64,000 nucleotides of DNA from a virus. Below are positions 5,289 through 50,820 of the stretch, piece by piece. The notes under the pieces were generated by a model, which did no database searches, was not told the DNA's origin, and worked only from the letters and a program-made list of their open reading frames with translations. Position numbers and translations under genes: made by a program. The DNA lies in IMG/VR virus record IMGVR_UViG_3300025018_000111, positions 49,941 to 113,940 of that record. One strand, 5' to 3'. The first letter of the stretch is position 1. Every line of letters begins with the position of its first letter.

Positions 5289-6011
5289 ACAAAAGAGATC
5301 GTACAAAGAACCATACTGTCTGTGGATACTAAACTATTGTCTATAGCTTCTGGAGCCATTTCTATACCAATAGAGGGGGAGTGGAATAGTATAACGTTGG
5401 GGATATTGGGAGGATTATACTCTGATTCTCCTCAAAATTTAGCTTATGTTGGATCTTTATTTAAAATGGGATTATTTGATTCTGAGGATAGTATAAATTC
5501 CGACAATTCGTTATCGTCCCATTTTGTAGGCATGGAATTAGAAGGAGCTATTGATTACGATGCAACATACGATTATTACAAAAATTCAGCATCTGGTTCG
5601 CAAGAAATGAAAATGAGGATTCTCCAAAGCGGATCATCTGTTTACTATCAAGATTTTGGGTTGGGCAACTATTTTGGATCTATCCCAAACAAAAAATTAG
5701 CTCTTTTCTTGCAGATTAAAAAAGGTGCCAGCTTCTACAGTTTTAGATTCTTCAGATCCAATCTTTCTTCAACTCCATCCACTAATTTTGAGGATTTTTT
5801 AATAAATATGCAGGCTAACTTCCCAGTTAGTATATCGGGCGGGATGTATGATACTCCTTTGAACGATTCTTATGGATACTCCTATGGAGATTCACTAGGA
5901 AGCGCAGTAGACGAAAGTACTTACGGAGCATTAAATACTTTCGGAGTTCTTTGGGCCAAAAGCGAGCCGAGACTAGAAATAGAAAAAATGTCTTACTGCA
6001 TTATTGATTAA
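5286..6011 (+). CDS. virion protein, paralog 3 of tandem triplet
   Basis: ATG 5286 (MTKEIVQRTI) aligns with paralog 2 start (MEIEQRSI); HFVGM, LFLQIKK..YSFRFFR, VDESTYGALN...WAKS. Confidence 0.6.
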   Translation: MTKEIVQRTILSVDTKLLSIASGAISIPIEGEWNSITLGILGGLYSDSPQNLAYVGSLFKMGLFDSEDSINSDNSLSSHFVGMELEGAIDYDATYDYYKNSASGSQEMKMRILQSGSSVYYQDFGLGNYFGSIPNKKLALFLQIKKGASFYSFRFFRSNLSSTPSTNFEDFLINMQANFPVSISGGMYDTPLNDSYGYSYGDSLGSAVDESTYGALNTFGVLWAKSEPRLEIEKMSYCIID

Positions 6012-37613: not shown

Positions 37614-38777
37614 TTACTTTACTTGACTTGTTTTTGTCAACACTTTATTTGGAATAATTCCGATATTCTCACAGAACATCGATGTTCTTTCTTTATTCGG
37701 AGATCCTTTGACCACAACTATGTCACCTTTATCTGGAAGTTTCCCATTGTTGGTTTCGCAATTGGATATTTCGTCCTCTCCAACCAACATAATAGTGAAA
37801 GTTCCAAAATCATCGGCGACCTTATATCGTAGATACTTATTGTCTCTTTTTGAAATTCCTATGAATGGCTTCTCAACGATTTCGCATCCGAGTCTGATTT
37901 TCTCACCATTCCCGAATTTCGCTTTCTTGATTTCTGGTATATTATAGACAGATTGATATTTTTTTTCAAGAATTTTCTTCAAAGTATTTGAGAAAGAATA
38001 TCCGAGATAGTGTCTCTCAAAATACCAATTAGAATATCCCTCGTGCTTAGAATTGATTTCCATCATCTTCTTATACTTAAAAGTATTCTTCCTGATCGTG
38101 TCCATTCTACTGGGAGCAACTAGAGGTTTTCCGTTATCCCCTATCTTTTGGGAAATCTTTTCTAGGGCAATATCTATCCTTTCGTCAATATTGTATTGAA
38201 TCAGAAGGTTTTTTTCCTTTGTGAGTTTATTCCAATATTGAATCTCAAAAGAAAATTCATTCCTAGATTTGATGAAATCATCAAAAAATCCACATCTGGT
38301 TAAACTTATGAGAGTGGTGACATCTAGTTTTGCCTCGTTCGCATTCAGAAGAATCTCATATTTGGAGTCAAAGTTTTCTAAAAGTTTATCTAGTTTTTGT
38401 TTCTTTTCTTGTTTGATTCCACGAACGCAAGCAATTCCATGACGGATATTTTTGTCCTCAAGTGAAAAATCAATCTGACTTTTCCCAATGCAAGGAGGAA
38501 GCAATTCTATATTTTCCCCGACCATTTCTCTTTGGATGCTTCCAACTTCGGACTGTTGTTCTCCTTTGTTATTGGTCATTTTTAGATTCCCAAGAAAAAA
38601 CTGAGTTGGGAACTTGTATTTTAAATAGATGGTGATTGCGGTAAGAGCGGAATAAGCGATACTGTGACTGTTGCTCGCCACCAATCCGTTCGCCAACACA
38701 AAATTGTGACAAGGATTATCTACCTCTATATCAATAAGATCCCTCTCTTCGAGTTCTGTGGATTTAATGATTCTCAT
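37614..38777 (-). CDS. dnaE: DNA polymerase III alpha C-terminal half preceded by split-intein IntC
   Basis: IntC MRIIK...HNFVLANGLVASN then SHSIAYS...YLKYKFPTQFF, LLPPCI, IRHGIACVRGI, ERHYLGY, OB fold; true start ATG 38777. Confidence 0.92.
   Translation of the reverse strand: MRIIKSTELEERDLIDIEVDNPCHNFVLANGLVASNSHSIAYSALTAITIYLKYKFPTQFFLGNLKMTNNKGEQQSEVGSIQREMVGENIELLPPCIGKSQIDFSLEDKNIRHGIACVRGIKQEKKQKLDKLLENFDSKYEILLNANEAKLDVTTLISLTRCGFFDDFIKSRNEFSFEIQYWNKLTKEKNLLIQYNIDERIDIALEKISQKIGDNGKPLVAPSRMDTIRKNTFKYKKMMEINSKHEGYSNWYFERHYLGYSFSNTLKKILEKKYQSVYNIPEIKKAKFGNGEKIRLGCEIVEKPFIGISKRDNKYLRYKVADDFGTFTIMLVGEDEISNCETNNGKLPDKGDIVVVKGSPNKERTSMFCENIGIIPNKVLTKTSQVK
38670..38777 (-). mobile_element. 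split intein C-fragment (36 aa)
   Basis: DIEVDNPCHNFVLANGLVASN|S: intein blocks F/G, terminal Asn, +1 Ser. Confidence 0.92.
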
Positions 38778-39876
38778 TTTTGACTTTCTTCCATATCCAT
38801 ATTGGTTCACCAAATTTTCCAGCTTTATCAGATTTACTATTTGGCCTTTTCCCCATTTCCAATCCCCAACAACCTTGATACTCGGAATTTTCCAAAGTGT
38901 CAATGAATTTGTTCATCGGATCGCAAATTTTATTTATCCGATGATGACAATAAACATCACTAATATTGATAGCGAGAGTTCCATTTTCGTCTAAACTATC
39001 CCAACTATTTTTAATACTTCTGAAAAGAAAATTTTCCAACCATTCTTCAAAAACCTTATATTTTACCCAACTCTGAGATTCGTCATAACTGTATCTTTCA
39101 ATATCGTAATAAGGGGGAGACGTAAAAATAAAATCAAAATTTTGACTGTACTTATATTCTTCAGCCTGACCGACATTCATGTTGACAAACTTTGATCCGT
39201 TATCAAAAATCTGAATCTGCTTATTGTAACCGTCAACTAGTTTTTCATTGGGATCTAATCCAAAATAAGAAACCCCAGTGTTTGAAGCTAAAAATCCACT
39301 CAGCCTATCCCCCCAACCAGAGGAAAAGTCAAGAATTTTCTTAGCCTCAAAATGATCGTACAAGACTTTCGCCACAGATGGTCTAAATTGGCTCGCAATG
39401 TACTTTCTAAGCGATATTAGAGTCCTGATAGTATCAGAGTTAAGGGACATAATTTTAAGAGTCCACAAACCGTTTAAAAGAGTATTTAAAAACTTCGCAT
39501 TATTCCAAACTCTTTCGGGACTCGGACTGTTGATAGAATTTGTTTTCCACCGATTATATTGGTGAAAATAATTGCTTGATTTATTCCCAACGTTGAGAGA
39601 TTTTAAAAGAATGTCCTTTCTCTCAAATTCATAATCATACCGAGTGTTCCATTTTGATTCGATTAAAACATCAGATACTTTTACTCTGGTTAATTTGTCA
39701 AAATCTTCTTTTGCATCTTGCTCGGTTATTTTGAGATAAGGAAGAGGAGGATCTTTCATCATTATCTCCTCTATTATTCTGTGCTTAATATCTCCTTTAG
39801 AGAATCTTTCGTTTATTTGTTTCCAGTCTCGTTCTGATACGTTGAACTCTCCGTTTTTTATAAATTCCCTAAGCAT
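38764..39876 (-). CDS. DNA amino-methyltransferase (N4-C/N6-A type)
   Basis: Motif I ILDFSSGWGDR, motif IV FDFIFTSPPYY, LAINISD. Confidence 0.85.
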   Translation of the reverse strand: MLREFIKNGEFNVSERDWKQINERFSKGDIKHRIIEEIMMKDPPLPYLKITEQDAKEDFDKLTRVKVSDVLIESKWNTRYDYEFERKDILLKSLNVGNKSSNYFHQYNRWKTNSINSPSPERVWNNAKFLNTLLNGLWTLKIMSLNSDTIRTLISLRKYIASQFRPSVAKVLYDHFEAKKILDFSSGWGDRLSGFLASNTGVSYFGLDPNEKLVDGYNKQIQIFDNGSKFVNMNVGQAEEYKYSQNFDFIFTSPPYYDIERYSYDESQSWVKYKVFEEWLENFLFRSIKNSWDSLDENGTLAINISDVYCHHRINKICDPMNKFIDTLENSEYQGCWGLEMGKRPNSKSDKAGKFGEPIWIWKKVKNENH

Positions 39877-40520
39877 TCGATATAGTCGTTTGATTTATTT
39901 AAAGATTCAACAGAATTTATCTCTTTAAAATGTTTTTCTGTCAATTCAAAAGGATTCAGATATTTGTACTTCAAATTAGCAGAATTGCATCTTACTTCCA
40001 TCCTGTTCCATCCATCAGTTTTCCCCTTTTTGAGACATTTTATATTTTCATGAGAAAAATATTCGTCTTTTCCTATCCAGCCAATTAGCCACGCTTTTTT
40101 GAAATCCTTATGGACTCTCATAAAAACATATTTGTCGCAATCCATTCCTTTAGAATAAAAAGGTACGCTGGCATCAAATGCTTCTGATTTTCCCACGATT
40201 GGATCAACATCCACCCCTTGAGTCTTAGTTTTAACATCATAATTTACTTTTCCATTTTTACTAATAAAATCATAATCATATACAACATTCCCAACATATT
40301 TTAGTTTATTCCTGAATATTTGAAAAAATAAATATTCACCTAAGATTCCAGATGAATTCCTATTTCCCTCCATAAAGGATCTATTATTGAGCTTCCCCAT
40401 CGATTCGGCAATTTCGCGCAATCGATCAATCGTACTTGGAATATCGAAGTTTAATTCATAACATCCTGAATCTAACTTACTTATACATATTTCCCCATCT
40501 TGAACTTTTAATCTAAACAT
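39858..40520 (-). CDS. putative PD-(D/E)XK endonuclease
   Basis: GILGE...YDYDF...YDVKTK...CDKYVF; ATG 40520 overlaps the dnaE-N stop. Confidence 0.65.
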   Translation of the reverse strand: MFRLKVQDGEICISKLDSGCYELNFDIPSTIDRLREIAESMGKLNNRSFMEGNRNSSGILGEYLFFQIFRNKLKYVGNVVYDYDFISKNGKVNYDVKTKTQGVDVDPIVGKSEAFDASVPFYSKGMDCDKYVFMRVHKDFKKAWLIGWIGKDEYFSHENIKCLKKGKTDGWNRMEVRCNSANLKYKYLNPFELTEKHFKEINSVESLNKSNDYIECLGNL

Positions 40521-42768
40521 ATTTAAAGTCACATTGGAAATCATCTAACGATTTAATCGGAATCATTCTCCCACTCCTTTGCTCCATAAATTTGTGAGAT
40601 TTGGACGAAACTACTTTCGCTCCAGAGTCAAATTTGTATTCGACTGCCGGTTTGTTAGAACGATAAGTTTGAGTAACAGTAGATTCTACAATTTCATCAA
40701 TCTCGAAATCGTAACTATAAACTTTATCCCCGATATTCAAATCACCGATTCTTTTGCTCCCATAAGGAGTTTCAACCTCTGTGTCTGGATCTAAGCACTT
40801 GTTAAAACTATAGCTCGCGGAATCGTGCAATAATTTCCAGTAAATCTCAAAAACTTCTGGATCATAACCCCTCTCCTCCCCAGCTTTTCTAAGAACCGGC
40901 TCGAACTTGTCAATAATTTCCTTTTTCTTCTTACCGACTCCTCTTCGGATTTGCTCTCCATCTTCTAAAGATAATCCGAAAACTTTACTGGCAATTCTCA
41001 TCAGTTGCTCCTGATATATAAGCATGTTGCCACTTTCTTTTAAGTAAGGATCAAGGACTGGGTGAAGAGAGGGCGGAGTTCCTGAAGCTGTGTATTTGCT
41101 GTAGGGTTCGATGAATTGCAAAGCGCCCGGTCTCGCGATAGCCAACACCGCACTCAAATCCTCAATATTCCTCGGTTTAATAGCCCTAGTAGTCTTATAC
41201 GCAGTATCTTCGCTAATTTGGAACAATCCGTACCTAGAATCCAAATCCTGACAAATCTGATAGATATAAGGATCTTCAATATCAATATCGTCAATATCTA
41301 ATCCCACAATCTTACAAACCTCATCAACAACACTAAGAGTTTTCACCCCTAGTAGGTCTAGTTTAATGGTTAAAAGTTCTACCACGTTCTTATTATAAGA
41401 ACTCACAAGATTCCCCTCTTTCGTCAATTCTACTGGAAGAGTTTTATCTAAAGAGTGTTTGCTTACAATGATTCCGCTCGCATGAACTCCTTTGTTTCTA
41501 GGGAGTCCATTCAATTTTTGAGCAACCTTAAATGCCCTCTCATTTTCCTTACACCAGTTATCGAACTTTTGACTTTTAGCTCTCGTATCTTCCAGAGAAT
41601 CAACATTCCCGAATTGAGATTCAATGAAACTCGAAATCTTCGTCATTTCTTGATCACTTTTAGCAGCAACGATCTTTCCACACTCTTTTATCAGGATTTT
41701 ACTGGTAAGAGTATTAACATTTAGAATATGACAAACTTTTCCTTTATATTTTTCGGAAACATAATTGATAACCTCTGGTCGTCGATAATAATCAATGTCA
41801 ATATCAACGTCACACATTAAAGATCCGTCAAGATATGTGATTCCATCTATGACTGTTTTTTTGGCTCTTGCTCTGCTGACAAATCTCTCGAAGTAAAGTT
41901 CATATCGAATAGGATCAATCTTTGTAACATTGATTAGGAATAAGATTAACGATCCGCAAGCCGAATTGTGAACAGTATAATTTTCAGTCGAATAAGAGGG
42001 GGAATCACCGCTCATTGTTAGATCATAAACTTTTTTATATTTATTTTTAACAATTTCGGTCGATTGGACGATTTGAAAACTAGGATAATATTCTATGCCG
42101 TCATATCTGACTAGAACATCCCCAATTTTAATATTCTCAGATTTTACCCATTTCGTTTCTGGAATACTTGGGTAATCACTATCATAAATATAAGAATCAT
42201 CAACAATGAGAACCTCGTGGTCTTTTGTTAATGAAACGGATTCATCTTTAACTTCTAAAAGATTTATCTTAACCAAATCTTCATCGCAATCGTATTCGTG
42301 TTTAGCCCTAACATTGCTCCACTTACCGAATCCATTCAGGATAATGTCTCCTTTTTGAATGTCTTTGATATATTTTAATCCATCTTTAGTTCTGATTTTA
42401 GAATACGGATGAAGACATCCCCTTCCGTGACCAAGCAATATCCCTTTTTCTCTACAAAAATTGCAAACATCCCAAATCAAAAGAAAATAATCGGTGAAAG
42501 ACAATTCTTCAATAAGATCCAATTCGTAATCAAGTCTGTCTTGATATTCTTTCTTTTTTGATTCCGGTTTATCTGAGATATATTCTCTAAGAGAATTATC
42601 ACAAAGAGATTTTAAAAAATCAAAGTTTTTGAAGTTTTTTGGAAGATTATATTTTTCTACATACTTTCGATCAATTTCAATTTCAGGGAGTTCTACCCCT
42701 TTACTGGTTTTATCCAAAGAGGAAAACTGTTTTAGAAACTCTTTTTCAGTAAAATTTTTAATATCCAT
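40513..42768 (-). CDS. dnaE: DNA polymerase III alpha N-terminal half (no PHP core) with mini-intein and C-terminal split-intein IntN
   Basis: YQDRLDYEL, DYFLLIWD, GHGRG|intein|SACGS, FERF, DVDIDID, GVHASG, KLDLLG, IYQEQLM, YSFNK|CLDPD; ATG 42768 preferred. Confidence 0.93.
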   Translation of the reverse strand: MDIKNFTEKEFLKQFSSLDKTSKGVELPEIEIDRKYVEKYNLPKNFKNFDFLKSLCDNSLREYISDKPESKKKEYQDRLDYELDLIEELSFTDYFLLIWDVCNFCREKGILLGHGRGCLHPYSKIRTKDGLKYIKDIQKGDIILNGFGKWSNVRAKHEYDCDEDLVKINLLEVKDESVSLTKDHEVLIVDDSYIYDSDYPSIPETKWVKSENIKIGDVLVRYDGIEYYPSFQIVQSTEIVKNKYKKVYDLTMSGDSPSYSTENYTVHNSACGSLILFLINVTKIDPIRYELYFERFVSRARAKKTVIDGITYLDGSLMCDVDIDIDYYRRPEVINYVSEKYKGKVCHILNVNTLTSKILIKECGKIVAAKSDQEMTKISSFIESQFGNVDSLEDTRAKSQKFDNWCKENERAFKVAQKLNGLPRNKGVHASGIIVSKHSLDKTLPVELTKEGNLVSSYNKNVVELLTIKLDLLGVKTLSVVDEVCKIVGLDIDDIDIEDPYIYQICQDLDSRYGLFQISEDTAYKTTRAIKPRNIEDLSAVLAIARPGALQFIEPYSKYTASGTPPSLHPVLDPYLKESGNMLIYQEQLMRIASKVFGLSLEDGEQIRRGVGKKKKEIIDKFEPVLRKAGEERGYDPEVFEIYWKLLHDSASYSFNKCLDPDTEVETPYGSKRIGDLNIGDKVYSYDFEIDEIVESTVTQTYRSNKPAVEYKFDSGAKVVSSKSHKFMEQRSGRMIPIKSLDDFQCDFKYV
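40516..40797 (-). mobile_element. split intein N-fragment (94 aa)
   Basis: CLDPDTEVETPYGSKRIGDLNIGDKVYSYD (block A) ... VVSSKSHKF (block B), then a stop. Confidence 0.92.
41965..42417 (-). mobile_element. contiguous mini-intein (151 aa, no endonuclease) in the dnaE GRGS motif
   Basis: GRG|CLHPYSKIRTKDG...LTKDH...VYDLT...YTVHN|SACGS. Confidence 0.93.
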
Positions 42769-43069
42769 TTTTTTTATATTCGTCTTCGTCTTCGTCGTCG
42801 TCATCACCTTCATCTACCGTATATCCCAATTCTTCCAGATCAATATCGTTTTCCTCGGCAACCTCAAACAACTTTTCACTAATGACTTCTATCGATGCTA
42901 TGAATGTTTTAAGAGCGTCATTATCACTTCTGTCTATCTTCACAAAAGATTCTATACAAGCCCTATCATTTTCATCTTCTGTCGCAGTGTTAGTCGGAAT
43001 CAAGAGAATATAATCTTGTTTGTTCTTATCCAATCCGTCTAATAGGTCATAAATAAAATCTTTAGTCAT
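42758..43069 (-). CDS. hypothetical acidic protein
   Basis: 103 aa with D/E-rich tail; AGTGTATT motif at 43077-43084 upstream. Confidence 0.6.
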   Translation of the reverse strand: MTKDFIYDLLDGLDKNKQDYILLIPTNTATEDENDRACIESFVKIDRSDNDALKTFIASIEVISEKLFEVAEENDIDLEELGYTVDEGDDDDEDEDEYKKNGY

Positions 43070-43084
43070 AAAAAAGAATACACT

Positions 43085-43720
43085 TTAGAGCTTTGCCTCA
43101 TGCTTAAGATGATTCCAGATCTTCCAATTCAATCTAATATCATCCAGTGCGTCGTGAAGCTTTTCGGAGTCATATTCTATGTTAAAATGTTTTGCCAAAT
43201 ATTCCAAGTTAGACTTCACTCCTCTGACTCTTGTGTTTTTAACTCGATATTGATATTCGAGGAATGTTTCGTTCTCTGGATTAAACTTCATTCCATAAAA
43301 AATTCCTCTAGCAATACAGTTCGTGTCGATTGCTTTGTCGGGAAGGTGTCTCCATTCCTTCCCATACATCCGATAACACTCTTTTAAGAGAGGTAAGTCA
43401 AATCCGAGTATGTTGTGTCCCATGATATAATCACAGTCCTCTATGACAGGATAAATGAGATTGAACACCTCTTCGCTAGGTCTTGCGAGTCTCATCACCT
43501 CCTCATGATTGTATTTAGTGACATAAGCAGCCCCTTTTCCTATTCTCAGATCAGAGTCCCATTTCAGGTAATAATCTTTTTCATCAACGAGTTTGTCTCC
43601 AACGAAAGATAGGTAGGCAAATTGCCAGAAACGATTGCAGTGAAAACTCAGATTGAGTGAAAATGTTTCCTCGTCAAAAACACAAATTTTTGCATTATTA
43701 TCGAATCTTAGGTTCTGCAT
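43085..43720 (-). CDS. DEDDh 3'-5' exonuclease (Pol III epsilon-like)
   Basis: VFDEET, GHNILGFD, IDT, LHDALDD; ATG 43720 preferred. Confidence 0.88.
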   Translation of the reverse strand: MQNLRFDNNAKICVFDEETFSLNLSFHCNRFWQFAYLSFVGDKLVDEKDYYLKWDSDLRIGKGAAYVTKYNHEEVMRLARPSEEVFNLIYPVIEDCDYIMGHNILGFDLPLLKECYRMYGKEWRHLPDKAIDTNCIARGIFYGMKFNPENETFLEYQYRVKNTRVRGVKSNLEYLAKHFNIEYDSEKLHDALDDIRLNWKIWNHLKHEAKL

Positions 43721-43724
43721 AATA

Positions 43725-43925
43725 TTATTTCCCCTCTTCAAGAGATTTTTTTATTTCGGCCAATTTTTGCAGGATAACGTTCTTATCCAAGAACGCTGAA
43801 AACTTAATATCCGAAATCAATGAGTTCAATTTCCGATATGTTTCTCTCGGCTTTGTCCGCTCGAATTCAGATATTGAACCGATGGAATATGTATCCTGAT
43901 CTTCTATGTTGTTATTTGTTTCCAT
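43725..43925 (-). CDS. hypothetical protein
   Basis: 66-aa ORF overlapping the upstream stop. Confidence 0.55.
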   Translation of the reverse strand: METNNNIEDQDTYSIGSISEFERTKPRETYRKLNSLISDIKFSAFLDKNVILQKLAEIKKSLEEGK

Positions 43926-44655
43926 TTTTTTCTAAAAAACTTTCCCAACAAAAACTATCACTAGTCATGTCGTTTAATTCTGGTTTTTCTAACGTAGATC
44001 TATTCTGAATACAGCGATTTGTCAAGTAAGAAGTGAAATCACTCCTCTTTTTGTAATAGATACTCTTTATTTCAAGAGTCGGGAATCCCGAACTCTCACA
44101 ATAATCAACGACTCTTTTTCTCAGAATATCATCGAAAAGCAAATCATTATCCTCTAAAAAGAATACCGGATTCAACCCAGAAAAATCCAGATAAATTTTT
44201 GAGTTTTTGAGTCGGTTATTGTGGATGAAACTATCATAAAACGGAACGCATAGAACGAATAGATCTTGGTTCTGAATCATAAATTCTTTCAGATCCTCAA
44301 AAGAGATTCTAGGATTCTTATAATCTGATGTAAAGATTTTGCTACTTATTTGAATTAGCTTTTCTTCACTGTCGTTGGATTTCGACAAAAGTACAAATTT
44401 GGACTGAGAAGAGGGGTCGTCGTCTCCACAGTCGAACCTCAGTCCGAATGTTAGTTTAATGTCGTTTTCCTTACAAGACATTTTGGCCTCTTCATAACAG
44501 CCCATCGTATCATCGACAATAAAAATATGGTCAAGGTTGTTTTCCTTACTAATACTTATAATAGAGTCTGGACCGTTCTCCTGCGTTTTATCAGGATGTT
44601 TCAGAGTCAAAATACTCTTGCCGAAACTGTAAGATGTTTTAAAAATTGGTATCAT
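43912..44655 (-). CDS. stand-alone degenerate PHP domain of DNA Pol III alpha
   Basis: PIFKTSYSFGKSIL...IFIVDD...IKLTFGL...FVLLSK...LIQISS...PRISFEDL follows the DnaE PHP layout, with metal histidines lost. Confidence 0.75.
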   Translation of the reverse strand: MIPIFKTSYSFGKSILTLKHPDKTQENGPDSIISISKENNLDHIFIVDDTMGCYEEAKMSCKENDIKLTFGLRFDCGDDDPSSQSKFVLLSKSNDSEEKLIQISSKIFTSDYKNPRISFEDLKEFMIQNQDLFVLCVPFYDSFIHNNRLKNSKIYLDFSGLNPVFFLEDNDLLFDDILRKRVVDYCESSGFPTLEIKSIYYKKRSDFTSYLTNRCIQNRSTLEKPELNDMTSDSFCWESFLEKNGNK

Positions 44656-44684: not shown

Positions 44685-45674
44685 TTAATTGTTAAACTTC
44701 GGACAACCTGAATATTTGTGTTTCTTTTGATAAAACTGCTCTTGAATATTTTCAAAAGGAGTTTTTTGCGTCTTAATTACCTTTCCGTCCTTATTATACA
44801 GGCAGTAATAGTCGAATGCAAACTTATAACCACAATAATACATGGGAGATTTGTCTTTTTTCTTCTGTCCAATGAATCTGGCAAAGCCGCAACATAGGTT
44901 TCCCTCAAAAACATCTTTTCTCGGTTTAATATCAGCGGCGAATTTTCTATAAGCGTCTTTTTCCTCAAAGTTTTCAAACTTTTCCTGATAGTCTGCCAAA
45001 ACATATTCAAAGCCTTCCATCTCTTCCTCGGAAAGAGTGGTTCCCTTTTCGATAGGACTGTCTGGATGGTCAAGGTATTGAAATTCTGTTCTTATAGGGC
45101 GAGTTTCCCCTTCTTTCTTCAAAGCGAGATCGTAAATTATGCTTTGAATATTGAATAGTTTTTCTTCTTGACTTGGCTTTCTTTTCCCACATTTGTAATC
45201 CCGAATCACAACCTCATCCGCATATCTCATGCAGGCATCAATATATCCTAGAATATTGTAACGAGGATTTTCGTTTTTATGCTGGAACTTTTTCTCAGGG
45301 GGAAGGATTTCAGCTCCTTCTTTCCCAAAGAATCCCAAAGAAAATGCAGTTAAGACCAGATCGTTGATTAGATCCCATTCTATATTCTCCAATCCGTGCA
45401 GAGTGGACAACATCCTTACGAATCGAGTCATGGGTTTGTAAGAGTAAATATCCTTGCTCTTAAGAATAGATTCTACATCGTCTCTTCTTTTGTCACAGAG
45501 CATAGATTCCAAAATGCTGTGGACAACATTTCCGATCATAGTCCTTTGATAAGTGACATCAGGAATCTTTAAATGATATTTGGCCCAATATGCCCAAGAA
45601 CATTTTTCATACTGGTCAATCCTGCTCTTGCTGAGGTAAACCTCTTTCTTCTCTTTGTTTTCTTTCTCTTTCAT
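44685..45674 (-). CDS. PD-(D/E)XK exonuclease, Cas4/AddB/RecB-like
   Basis: LSKSRIDQYEKC, GNVVHSILE, GYID, IRDYK, QSIIY, C-terminal cysteines. Confidence 0.85.
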   Translation of the reverse strand: MKEKENKEKKEVYLSKSRIDQYEKCSWAYWAKYHLKIPDVTYQRTMIGNVVHSILESMLCDKRRDDVESILKSKDIYSYKPMTRFVRMLSTLHGLENIEWDLINDLVLTAFSLGFFGKEGAEILPPEKKFQHKNENPRYNILGYIDACMRYADEVVIRDYKCGKRKPSQEEKLFNIQSIIYDLALKKEGETRPIRTEFQYLDHPDSPIEKGTTLSEEEMEGFEYVLADYQEKFENFEEKDAYRKFAADIKPRKDVFEGNLCCGFARFIGQKKKDKSPMYYCGYKFAFDYYCLYNKDGKVIKTQKTPFENIQEQFYQKKHKYSGCPKFNN

Positions 45675-45678
45675 AATA

Positions 45679-46578
45679 TTAAAATCCTAAAAATTTCATT
45701 ATACTTTTTTTTCCAGATTCTACCAACATTTCATTATAATCATTTTTCGTTGGACATTTGATGATAACATTAGAAAAAAAATTGTCTAACCTTTTCTTAA
45801 TCTTAACCATTCCATCCTGTCCCCTGTTATTTTCGTCATTGTTTAAAGAAATGATGATCTGTTTTGGATTTAATCTGATTAGATTGTAAAAAACCATACT
45901 GCTCATATCCAGAGAAAAACATGGTACACAATTGTATATCCCACATTCCATTAAACTCAACATATCCCCGATACTTTCGACAAGGATGATGGTCCCCTCT
46001 TCCATTTCCGAATCATTAAATCGCGGGAAATACCAACTATTTTTCTTGCCAATCTTTTTCCACTTGTGTCTATTTTTATATTTCTCAGATTTGCCATTTA
46101 TAATATCTCTTCCGTCTAGTCCAATAATTCTGTTTCTTGATGAATATATTCTAAAAACAAACCTTCCCCATAGTTCTCCAAAATCGCAAACGCCGCAATC
46201 AAATTTATCTAAAACATCATCCGATATTCCCCTCTTATTCCAATAAGAGTAGTCCCTTTTTAATTCGTGGATCATTGATTTGGGAAGAGGGTTTTCTTTA
46301 TTTCTGATTTCCGATTCCTTTTGTTTTGAAAAGGATACGTTTATTTTCTTAACCCATTCTTCAGCGTCTTCGATCTTTAGTCCTTTCGTCAGACTGATAA
46401 GATATTTGAAACTAAATGATTTTCCTAAGACAAAATCTCTACATGATCCAGTGGATAGATTAACACTTAATGCTCTGTCGTTATCTGAGTCTCGGTAAAG
46501 TGGGCGCATACTCGCCCAACCATTACAAGAACTAGTAATCCTGTATCCGAGACTCTCTAGACATTCTTTCACGTCCAT
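45679..46578 (-). CDS. dnaG: DNA primase (TOPRIM)
   Basis: YWNKRGISD, RFVFRI...IGLDGR, ILVESIGD, SLNND...G, DYNEM; zinc-finger ligands degenerate. Confidence 0.82.
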   Translation of the reverse strand: MDVKECLESLGYRITSSCNGWASMRPLYRDSDNDRALSVNLSTGSCRDFVLGKSFSFKYLISLTKGLKIEDAEEWVKKINVSFSKQKESEIRNKENPLPKSMIHELKRDYSYWNKRGISDDVLDKFDCGVCDFGELWGRFVFRIYSSRNRIIGLDGRDIINGKSEKYKNRHKWKKIGKKNSWYFPRFNDSEMEEGTIILVESIGDMLSLMECGIYNCVPCFSLDMSSMVFYNLIRLNPKQIIISLNNDENNRGQDGMVKIKKRLDNFFSNVIIKCPTKNDYNEMLVESGKKSIMKFLGF

Positions 46579-49650: not shown

Positions 49651-50820
49651 TTAGCTGTACATTTCTACAATAGAATCTCTAATCATCTTATATAGATAAT
49701 CACGCACTATAGGATTTTGTTCTAAAATTTCTAAAAATGAGTCCTGATTTTTAGGCTTAGTGTCGTGGCTAAGAAGATTCGGAATCTCAATATTCTGACC
49801 CTGCATTTGTTTCAACACATCTTCGTGAATTTGGAATTTAGCTTGGACTGGTTCGGATATGAAGCCAAGATACAATCCGACTTCCAGAATTTCTTTTTCT
49901 TTCCAGATGCTATTTCCGTTTTTTTGGTGGTATCTAACAGGGTATGTGACTGTAGTATCAGAAGTTTCGTCCATGCTTTTGATAATCTTCACCTTACATT
50001 CTTTCGACATGATTTTATTAGTGAAGAAATCAGAGTCTTTCTTATCAGTTTCTCGATCAAAACTCTTTTGATAATTTTCTTCATATTGAAGAATAATGTC
50101 AGCATAGTGTCTTACGGCATTTCCTCCTGCTGCCTTCATTTTTGGCGGAGGAGCATGTCCATGACCGGTTTGAATGGAAGCCACGCGCTCTTGGGAAATG
50201 AGCGCGATGTGATGCCCAGCCCTTTCTGTAACAAGGCCAACGTGCTTGAAAAACAAACTCATCAACACCGGACCTCCAGAAACTTTTGTAGCCTCATCGA
50301 ATCCCTTGCTCAGATCATTCTGGAGAATCAATGCGTCAATACTGTCAACAATAAAAAAATACTGAATCTCTTCTTTATTATTGGCCATCAATTCTTTGAT
50401 AAAAGTTAGAACAATCTCAAAAACATTAGAATGAAAAATAAAGCAAGTTCCAATATCCCAATTCTCAACATCTTCGGTAAATGTAATACCGGACCTTTTT
50501 TTCATACTATTCTTGAGACGACCCTCGGCTGGAATACAGAAACCTTTGCTGTTAGGATTGTCTCTCAGAAAGATTCTCATCATTTCTAAAGCTTGGGAGG
50601 TCTTCCCGCTTCCGCTAGTGCCAATAAGTCTCGAAGTTCCATTCCTAAATCCTCCCCCGAGAGCAATGTCTAATTTCAAACTGCCAGTAGAAATCAAAAA
50701 CTCTCTCTGAGCTGTAAAGTTGTAGTGGTTTTTCTTATATTCTTTTAACAAAAGAGCAACTTGGCTCTTTGAATGACTTTCCTCTTGGACATTTTCCTCT
50801 ACCTGCTTATTCTTCTTCAT
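49651..50820 (-). CDS. recA: RecA/UvsX-like recombinase
   Basis: ISTGSLKLDIALGGG, GTSGSGKT, IVDSIDAL, ISQER, AAGGNAVRHYA. Confidence 0.92.
   Translation of the reverse strand: MKKNKQVEENVQEESHSKSQVALLLKEYKKNHYNFTAQREFLISTGSLKLDIALGGGFRNGTSRLIGTSGSGKTSQALEMMRIFLRDNPNSKGFCIPAEGRLKNSMKKRSGITFTEDVENWDIGTCFIFHSNVFEIVLTFIKELMANNKEEIQYFFIVDSIDALILQNDLSKGFDEATKVSGGPVLMSLFFKHVGLVTERAGHHIALISQERVASIQTGHGHAPPPKMKAAGGNAVRHYADIILQYEENYQKSFDRETDKKDSDFFTNKIMSKECKVKIIKSMDETSDTTVTYPVRYHQKNGNSIWKEKEILEVGLYLGFISEPVQAKFQIHEDVLKQMQGQNIEIPNLLSHDTKPKNQDSFLEILEQNPIVRDYLYKMIRDSIVEMYS

Follow-up and report, generated by a model that had tools for sequence, protein, structure and literature searches.

A fractured dnaE gene in an uncultured marine phage, with a predicted split intein and a nuclease-methyltransferase gene pair between its halves

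The window analyzed here is a stretch of 64,000 nt (positions 49,941 to 113,940 of IMG/VR record IMGVR_UViG_3300025018_000111) that forms the final 64 kb of a 113,940-bp record with an estimated completeness of 68%. Its source is an uncultured marine phage, and contigs related to the record reach 158–171 kb. It carries a fractured gene for the catalytic subunit of a replicative DNA polymerase (dnaE), the two halves of which would be rejoined at the protein level by a split intein, while the gap between them holds a gene for a predicted homing-type nuclease and another for what appears to be a recruited methyltransferase. We consider this overall explanation probable (about 0.75). A fractured phage dnaE with a split intein is already known, and it is the two-gene content of the gap that is new.

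The split gene can be assigned to the DnaE-type polymerases (family C, PolIII-alpha), as palm, finger and helix-hairpin-helix (HhH) domains are all present. Pfam detects DNA_pol3_alpha (9e-56, in two stretches) and DNA_pol3_finger (4.5e-29) in the N-terminal part (N-part), and HHH_6 (2e-11) in the C-terminal part (C-part), which also matches PHROG 405, DNA polymerase (3e-22). No close relative was retrieved by a single-protein scan of IMG/VR or by megablast against cultured phages, and the best DnaE matches in cultured phages share less than 33% identity. Two whole open reading frames (ORFs), for the nuclease and then the methyltransferase, lie between the dnaE halves, all on the minus strand (Table 1). 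Intergenic DNA is absent across the four-gene fracture and every junction overlaps: by 8 nt between the N-part stop and the nuclease start (ATGTTTAG), by 19 nt between the nuclease and methyltransferase frames, and by 14 nt between the methyltransferase and C-part frames. The nuclease and methyltransferase genes are probably co-transcribed. An in-frame ATG at 42813 would extend the N-part to 766 aa, but it is probably not used because relatives, and the database copy P0001, begin at M16 (42768; 751 aa). For the nuclease, all homologues use M9 (40520), which gives 220 aa, against 228 aa from 40544. An Rfam scan matched no family, hence no group I intron, no meaningful repeats were found flanking the two-gene insert, and promoter-like and terminator-like sites were no more frequent than in shuffled sequence.

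The N-part ends with ...ASYSFNK/CLDPDTEV...SKSHKF...FKYV and a stop codon (the slash marks a splice junction), and the C-part reads MRIIK...HNFVLANGLVASN/SHSIAYS from the ATG at 38777. A reading of the sequence without database searches (hereafter, the sequence-only reading) had proposed an N-terminal intein fragment (IntN) of 94 aa after ...SFNK, a C-terminal fragment (IntC) of 36 aa from this ATG, and two whole genes in between, with overlaps among all four ORFs, and each of these features is found as described. The intein is of the class-1 split HINT type, with Cys1 directly after ...SFNK. Block B of IntN is S-K-S-H, in which the His is kept and Ser takes the place of the Thr of TxxH, and IntC has a block F of DLIDIEV..HNF, a net charge of -4 and the ending ...LVASN, followed by the +1 Ser (SHS). 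The penultimate IntC residue is thus Ser and not the usual His; both this substitution and the SxxH form of block B are family-wide and occur in the contiguous inteins at the same site. IntN matches solved inteins by phmmer against the PDB (DnaE intein 7qil, 6e-5; Npu DnaE 4lx3, 8e-4; gp41-1 6qaz, 1e-3), while IntC matches, by tblastn, the IntC of two other fractured loci (L003 and L010). The two fragments align with the two ends of contiguous mini-inteins in four relatives (P0010, P0028, P0040 and P0041), with Cys1, the block B His, block F and the terminal Asn in register. Splicing had been predicted to restore the FNKSH motif exactly, and unsplit relatives do read ...SANYSFNKSHS... across the junction without a gap (P0042, P0056, L019); the alignment of N-part relatives (A1) closes at the same point. 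With complementary halves and intact catalytic residues, the assembly of the replicase by trans-splicing, as first suggested from the sequence-only reading, is well supported by comparative evidence.

Relatives of the N-part were collected in a search of 5.8 billion proteins, which found thousands in marine metagenomes, and these fall into several length classes in A1. Proteins of about 850 aa are unsplit and have an uninterrupted FNKSHS, those of about 1000 aa (P0010, P0028, P0040, P0041) carry a contiguous mini-intein of 132–142 aa exactly between K and S, and those of about 590–600 aa are split, and end about 90 residues past FNK/C. The states of the site were counted in 80 IMG/VR loci fetched with a DnaE profile, in 70 of which the extein parts are contiguous. 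Split loci (among L001–L010, L025 and L037) differ in content: L001, L002 and L010 have a GIY-YIG gene on the opposite strand, L003, L007, L025 and L037 have a Vsr-like gene, L005 and L008 have an HNH domain fused in frame to IntN, and the gap of L004 (L004:5022-5795, where a stop at 5504 is followed by the next ATG about 28 nt on) is without any gene. Comparison with related phages, as advised in the sequence-only reading, has therefore turned up intact dnaE, a contiguous intein at the same site and several different inserts. The expectation that fractured genes usually carry a single free-standing endonuclease agrees with published cases (PMC2677866) and with L001–L003, where this classical form, with one GIY-YIG or Vsr-like endonuclease, is seen.

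Two pairs of loci capture the site in both its occupied and empty forms. Between L001 (L001:11487-12740) and L021, which is unsplit, the flanks share 96.6% identity and a 1254-nt indel falls precisely at FNK/SHS; L003 (L003:9146-10481) and L080 form a second such pair for the whole unit of split intein plus endonuclease. In the latter pair, a 1.47-kb upstream tract is 97.7% identical, compared with 78–92% elsewhere, which looks like co-conversion. These pairs show that units of split intein plus endonuclease come and go at FNK/SHS. The contiguous intein of P0040 and the split intein of L025, which has a Vsr-like gene, have near-identical halves and belong to one clade; together with the state of L004, they give the impression of an endonuclease caught in the act of being gained or lost. 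In a quick maximum-likelihood (ML) tree of the extein cores, intein states are scattered, and the clade of the window is monophyletic on a long stem (SH-aLRT 100; a Shimodaira-Hasegawa approximate likelihood ratio test). The phage group spans the full series of stages at a single dnaE site (empty, contiguous mini-intein, split without a gene, and split with a GIY-YIG, Vsr-like, HNH or PD-(D/E)xK insert), and its near-identical empty and occupied genome pairs make it a good natural system for the study of gene fracture.

The first of the two genes in the gap encodes a 220-aa protein without a match in Pfam, PHROG, NCBIfam or PADLOC, and its only matches in the protein atlas are unnamed viral clusters. 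Its putative catalytic residues are E62, D84 and D95-V-K97 (numbered from the M at 40520), and the E62, D84 and D95-x-K97 columns are invariant in the alignment of the family (A3). An AlphaFold (AF2) model built from an alignment of nine sequences had a mean predicted local distance difference test score (pLDDT) of 75.8. Foldseek searches with this model returned nothing at E <= 0.001, the weak best match being NhoI (E 0.02), and an all-against-all structural scan gave top Z scores for NhoI (7.0), DpnI (6.9), Eco15I (6.0), D212 (5.8), I-Ssp6803I (5.7) and Hjc (4.8), all of which are PD-(D/E)xK enzymes. With Z scores in this middling range, the protein is predicted to have a PD-(D/E)xK nuclease fold and, putatively, the corresponding activity. 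The methylation dependence of NhoI, DpnI and Eco15I was noted, and the Z scores are too low to build on it.

Close homologues of the nuclease (P0121–P0127, 67–95% identity) are present only on contigs that also bear a fractured dnaE. Distant homologues (26–39% identity, 130–180 aa) are free-standing, and the window protein has about 65 extra terminal residues relative to them. In more than 60 metagenome loci, a relative of 130–180 aa (26–32% identity) has its place upstream of dnaE, with the PHP gene on one side and the exonuclease gene on the other, and other distant relatives adjoin unrelated genes; in about 80 loci with such relatives there is no methyltransferase neighbour. The PHP-exonuclease junction of the window (43085–44655) contains just a 66-aa ORF (43725–43925) and no gene of the nuclease family, which is single-copy in the record. 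A family hidden Markov model (HMM) found members in only 3 of 80 unbiased IMG/VR loci, ruling out a universal core gene, and the junction is empty in 46 of 76 IMG/VR relatives; because of these two results, the nuclease gene is taken to be dispensable. Near-identical genome pairs with and without a nuclease at the PHP junction were sought and none were found. We read the nuclease as an accessory, homing-type member of a patchily distributed, free-standing phage family. Separately, the same junction in other loci (among L012–L079 and L084–L161) carries small, unrelated ORFs, at least five in number, that have PD-(D/E)xK-like D...(D/E)xK motifs.

The second gene in the gap specifies a class I S-adenosylmethionine (SAM)-dependent amino-methyltransferase, in which motif I (FSSGWGD, aa 184–190) precedes motif IV (TSPPY, aa 252–256) and an N-terminal domain specific to the family takes up the first ~160 aa. 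Its AF2 model (pLDDT 94.6) has a class I Rossmann fold. Pfam N6_N4_Mtase scores 25.7 bits, just below the cut-off of 26.7, and is recorded on most relatives, and PADLOC reports MTase_II (6.8e-8). The closest solved folds are the tRNA N2-methylguanosine (m2G) enzymes TrmN (Z 16.0) and aTrm11 (Z 15.6), only slightly above generic class I methyltransferases (Z 13–15), and a PDB profile search gave marginal matches only. Cultured-phage matches, which cover only the catalytic half at ~30% identity, carry DNA methylase annotations, and DNA is the likely target. The family is large (5065 representatives), and its neighbours in 80 IMG/VR loci include clamp loaders, PolB, GNAT enzymes and other methylases; only one PDDEXK_1 and one UvdE nuclease occur among 134 neighbours. 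It therefore appears to be mostly an orphan family, normally located in T4-like replication modules. With a profile of the family, no member was found in three large records of related phages, of which one is 100% complete; the same profile detects it in the record of the window, which served as the positive control.

Several relatives of the methyltransferase have unusual neighbours or partners. Three proteins join a homing-type endonuclease, with helix-turn-helix (HTH) and LAGLIDADG parts, to a full-length methyltransferase of the window's family (42–50% identity) in a single ORF (P0129, 732 aa; P0133, 631 aa; P0257, 756 aa), and two of these (P0129, P0133) are among the six best representative matches. 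To our knowledge, no LAGLIDADG-methyltransferase fusion has been described. The gene of the closest IMG/VR relative (L162, 51% identity) is followed by a 442-aa ORF (L162:6138-7463), and likewise in L241 (L241:6079-7404). The L162 ORF, the one scanned singly, has several HTH motifs of the phage homing endonuclease kind in its first 160 residues, and its remainder falls in no family.

The fractured dnaE N-part, the nuclease and the methyltransferase occur together on at least eight independent contigs (5470, 19396, 4305, 4951, 9138, 9803, 2413 and 16981 bp) at 67–95% protein identity, with the gene order on these contigs deduced from the matching size and source of the protein hits and not read directly. 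On the 5470-bp contig the three proteins show similar divergence from those of the window (75%, 69% and 68% identity, respectively). By these comparisons, the fracture and the gene pair are passed on as one throughout the clade. Mis-assembly of the insert is ruled out by the presence of the trio on independent contigs. Outside the clade, the two families almost never co-occur, so that the association expected of restriction-modification (R-M) partners is not seen. In another phage, the same dnaE site is independently fractured (L008:11354-13000), and there IntN continues in frame into a NUMOD4-HNH endonuclease and is followed by an MT-A70 (DPPW) methyltransferase gene, which is interrupted by a TAG in frame, at a codon that would be Trp (TGG) in relatives. 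The HNH and MT-A70 pair of L008 and the LAGLIDADG-methyltransferase fusions give a hint of real coupling between the two kinds of enzyme.

In the mechanism we propose, the catalytic subunit of the replicase would be made from two co-directional genes, with the break in the finger domain at FNK/SHS. After translation, the halves would associate, the intein would excise itself, and the exteins would be ligated by protein trans-splicing to restore FNKSH; a contiguous mini-intein of 151 aa in the N-part must splice in cis as well. The gap, which elsewhere accommodates a GIY-YIG, Vsr-like or HNH endonuclease, would here hold the PD-(D/E)xK nuclease as the homing-type endonuclease of the element, and the SPPY amino-methyltransferase would be a recruit from a widespread orphan methyltransferase family of phages. 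The leading, unproven suggestion is that the phage relies on the methyltransferase to protect its own DNA against the nuclease. A number of points weigh against this explanation. The penultimate IntC residue is Ser instead of His and block B is SxxH instead of TxxH; the fold matches of the nuclease are middling (Z 5–7; Foldseek E 0.02); its relatives have a fixed position between PHP and exonuclease genes in many metagenome loci, which could mean housekeeping and not homing; neither gene family is normally paired with the other, so that family history implies no coupling; and splicing, cleavage and methylation are all inferred from sequence and models.

The atypical penultimate Ser could also suit a scheme without splicing, in which the intein parts do no more than dock with each other non-covalently, or in which the polymerase gene has lost its function. 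A precedent for reassembly without splicing is the phage nrdA gene, split by a homing endonuclease gene, as reported in PMC3045599. This is very improbable here, however, as Cys1, the block B His, the terminal Asn and the +1 Ser are kept within the clade (75–92% identity) and in the contiguous relatives, which must splice to function, and the polymerase exteins are well conserved. How the two genes in the gap relate to each other is less clear-cut. They may be a cognate, self-protecting module resembling an R-M system, in which the nuclease cuts a fairly short unmethylated site (in co-infecting cassette-free phages, in intein-less dnaE alleles or in the chromosome of the host), the phage's own copies of this site are modified by the methyltransferase, and repair from the cassette-bearing genome spreads the module along with the split intein. 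This is a serious candidate that falls somewhat short of even odds. The strict co-occurrence and overlapping frames across the clade agree with it, as do the absence of the methyltransferase from related phages without the cassette, the independent HNH and MT-A70 pair of L008, the LAGLIDADG fusions among the best methyltransferase matches, and the Type II restriction enzymes that head the fold matches of the nuclease. It is harder to reconcile with the separate lives of the two families, each found in some 80 loci with no, or almost no, partner of the other kind, with the in-frame TAG of the L008 gene, or with the tRNA m2G enzymes as best folds of the methyltransferase. The sequence-only reading had described the insert as an R-M-like two-gene cassette: nuclease-like and methyltransferase genes are indeed present, while the R-M part of that description is hypothetical, given these family distributions and best folds.

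The separate distributions would be explained if the two genes were unrelated passengers, the nuclease a homing endonuclease of the usual long-target sort, against which no protection is required, and the methyltransferase an orphan anti-restriction enzyme, directed against host R-M systems, that hitch-hikes in an insertion-tolerant spot. Members of the methyltransferase family are found widely in phage replication modules as single genes, those of the nuclease family are free-standing in other places, and the fracture site takes many different inserts in relatives; the tight co-inheritance and translational overlap, and the recurrence of endonuclease-methyltransferase linkage in L008 and the LAGLIDADG fusions, speak against it, and we regard it as only slightly less probable than the cognate module. 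Overlapping with this is the idea that the nuclease is a housekeeping replication or recombination enzyme (such as an Hjc-like junction resolvase) that was relocated into the fracture from the PHP-exonuclease position and does not act in homing. The many loci with a relative at that position, the lack of such a gene at the PHP junction of the window, the single copy in the record, and the fold similarity to Hjc and D212 would all fit. We nevertheless judge it unlikely, since the junction is so often empty or occupied by unrelated small nuclease-like ORFs, the family HMM finds so few members, relatives also occur in unrelated contexts, and the version in the window has its extra terminal residues. 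More speculatively, the pairing of a homing-type nuclease with a methyltransferase might be recurrent in marine phages (L008; P0129, P0133), with the pair in the window being a self-protecting, R-M-like homing module that has replaced the classical homing endonuclease inside a split intein; we put this forward tentatively, at under even odds. If true, such recurrent pairing links two classes of selfish DNA that are usually treated apart. If the pair is cognate, the element would be a hybrid of an R-M system and an intein homing element, and a short or promiscuous target would be tolerable in a homing nuclease that comes with its own methylase.

Table 1. Features of the fractured dnaE locus and the adjoining replication genes (window coordinates)
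Feature	Coordinates	Strand	Remarks
Primase	45679-46578	minus	Replication block
RecB-like exonuclease	44685-45674	minus	Replication block
Free PHP-domain gene	43912-44655	minus	Replication block; PHP separate from dnaE in all relatives
Epsilon-like DEDD exonuclease	43085-43741	minus	Replication block
dnaE N-part	40513-42768	minus	Palm and finger of PolIII-alpha-like polymerase; two intein elements
Contiguous mini-intein, 151 aa	41965-42417	minus	Inside dnaE N-part
IntN, 94 aa	40516-40797	minus	Stop codon directly after, at 40513-40515
Predicted PD-(D/E)xK-fold nuclease, 220 aa	39858-40520	minus	Alternative start 40544 (228 aa)
Class I SAM-dependent amino-methyltransferase, 370 aa	38764-39876	minus	SPPY type
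IntC, 36 aa	38670-38777	minus	Start of dnaE C-part (37614-38777)
dnaE C-extein	37614-38669	minus	HhH domain and C-terminal region; first residues SHSIAYS

The 151-aa mini-intein of the N-part, which was missed in the sequence-only reading, interrupts the palm motif GRGSAAGS (GRG/C...VHN/SACGS). It lacks an endonuclease domain, is matched by Pfam PT-HINT (3.8e-7, over aa 140–268), and has Cys1, a TKDH block B, a terminal HN and a +1 Ser. Its position is a gap in all A1 relatives except P0002, which is 92% identical to the N-part and carries it, and it is precisely absent from the 91%-identical P0003, so that it appears as a presence/absence polymorphism between very close relatives. Two relatives in A1 (P0077 and P0052) have LAGLIDADG-containing inteins at TGGV/C...HN/C and RR/C...HN/CVGKK, bringing the intein sites in this phage dnaE family, with the two in the window, to at least four.

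Type II R-M systems act as selfish mobile units, and chloroviruses encode R-M systems. Like a virus-encoded Type II system, the locus has adjacent genes for a predicted PD-(D/E)xK nuclease and an amino-methyltransferase on a mobile stretch in a virus, but both families usually occur alone, and a shared specificity is here hypothetical. We know of no R-M system inside a split-intein fracture. A parallel for the nuclease is I-Ssp6803I, a small PD-(D/E)xK-fold enzyme that also resides in a mobile intervening element (Z 5.7, root-mean-square deviation 3.5 over 110 residues). There is no detectable sequence similarity between the two, however, and I-Ssp6803I is encoded in a cyanobacterial tRNA group I intron, whereas homing is putative for the protein described here.

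The intein resembles the split DnaE inteins of cyanobacteria (Ssp, Npu) in being class-1, in its location in the finger region of PolIII-alpha, in its similar half lengths and in a weak likeness of IntN (4lx3, 4qfq, E ~8e-4). It differs in its site, which lies four residues later (FNK/SHS versus Y/CFNKSH), as the sequence-only reading had correctly placed it, and in having a +1 Ser instead of Cys and a penultimate Ser instead of His; the halves are also adjacent here, and at distant loci in cyanobacteria. The IntC of Npu DnaE is basic, whereas that of the window is acidic. An acidic IntC, with a block F of the ...ELIDIEV... type, and a +1 Ser are shared with gp41-1 and related phage split inteins, which are likewise metagenome-derived (6qaz, phmmer 1e-3), but the host gene is another, the sequence similarity is only distant, and the terminal residues are SN and not HN. 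With its Cys1, +1 Ser, terminal Ser-Asn and acidic IntC, the split intein is a candidate for an orthogonal protein-ligation tool.

The closest precedents for the locus as a whole are the fractured genes defined from ocean metagenomes by Dassa, London, Stoddard, Schueler-Furman & Pietrokovski 2009 (PMC2677866), which include three DnaE loci. All three combine a split intein with a free-standing GIY-YIG or Vsr-like endonuclease, and one has an additional intein. The PolIII-alpha finger domain is described as a hot spot for inteins by Novikova et al. (PMC4760082). A methyltransferase in such a gap has 0 mentions in PMC2677866, none in PMC4760082, and was not encountered in literature searches. 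The arrangement in the window had been thought to be undescribed, which is too broad for the fractured dnaE and its split intein, already present in PMC2677866, and holds for the content of the gap. As in the genes of Dassa and colleagues, a phage-type gene of DNA metabolism is divided into adjacent, co-oriented halves by a split intein with a free-standing endonuclease-type gene in between (its activity here being predicted), and, as in one of their DnaE loci, there is an extra intein. Unlike those genes, which hold one GIY-YIG or Vsr-like endonuclease, often with its own control elements, the fracture described here contains two tightly overlapping genes, for a predicted PD-(D/E)xK nuclease and a methyltransferase.

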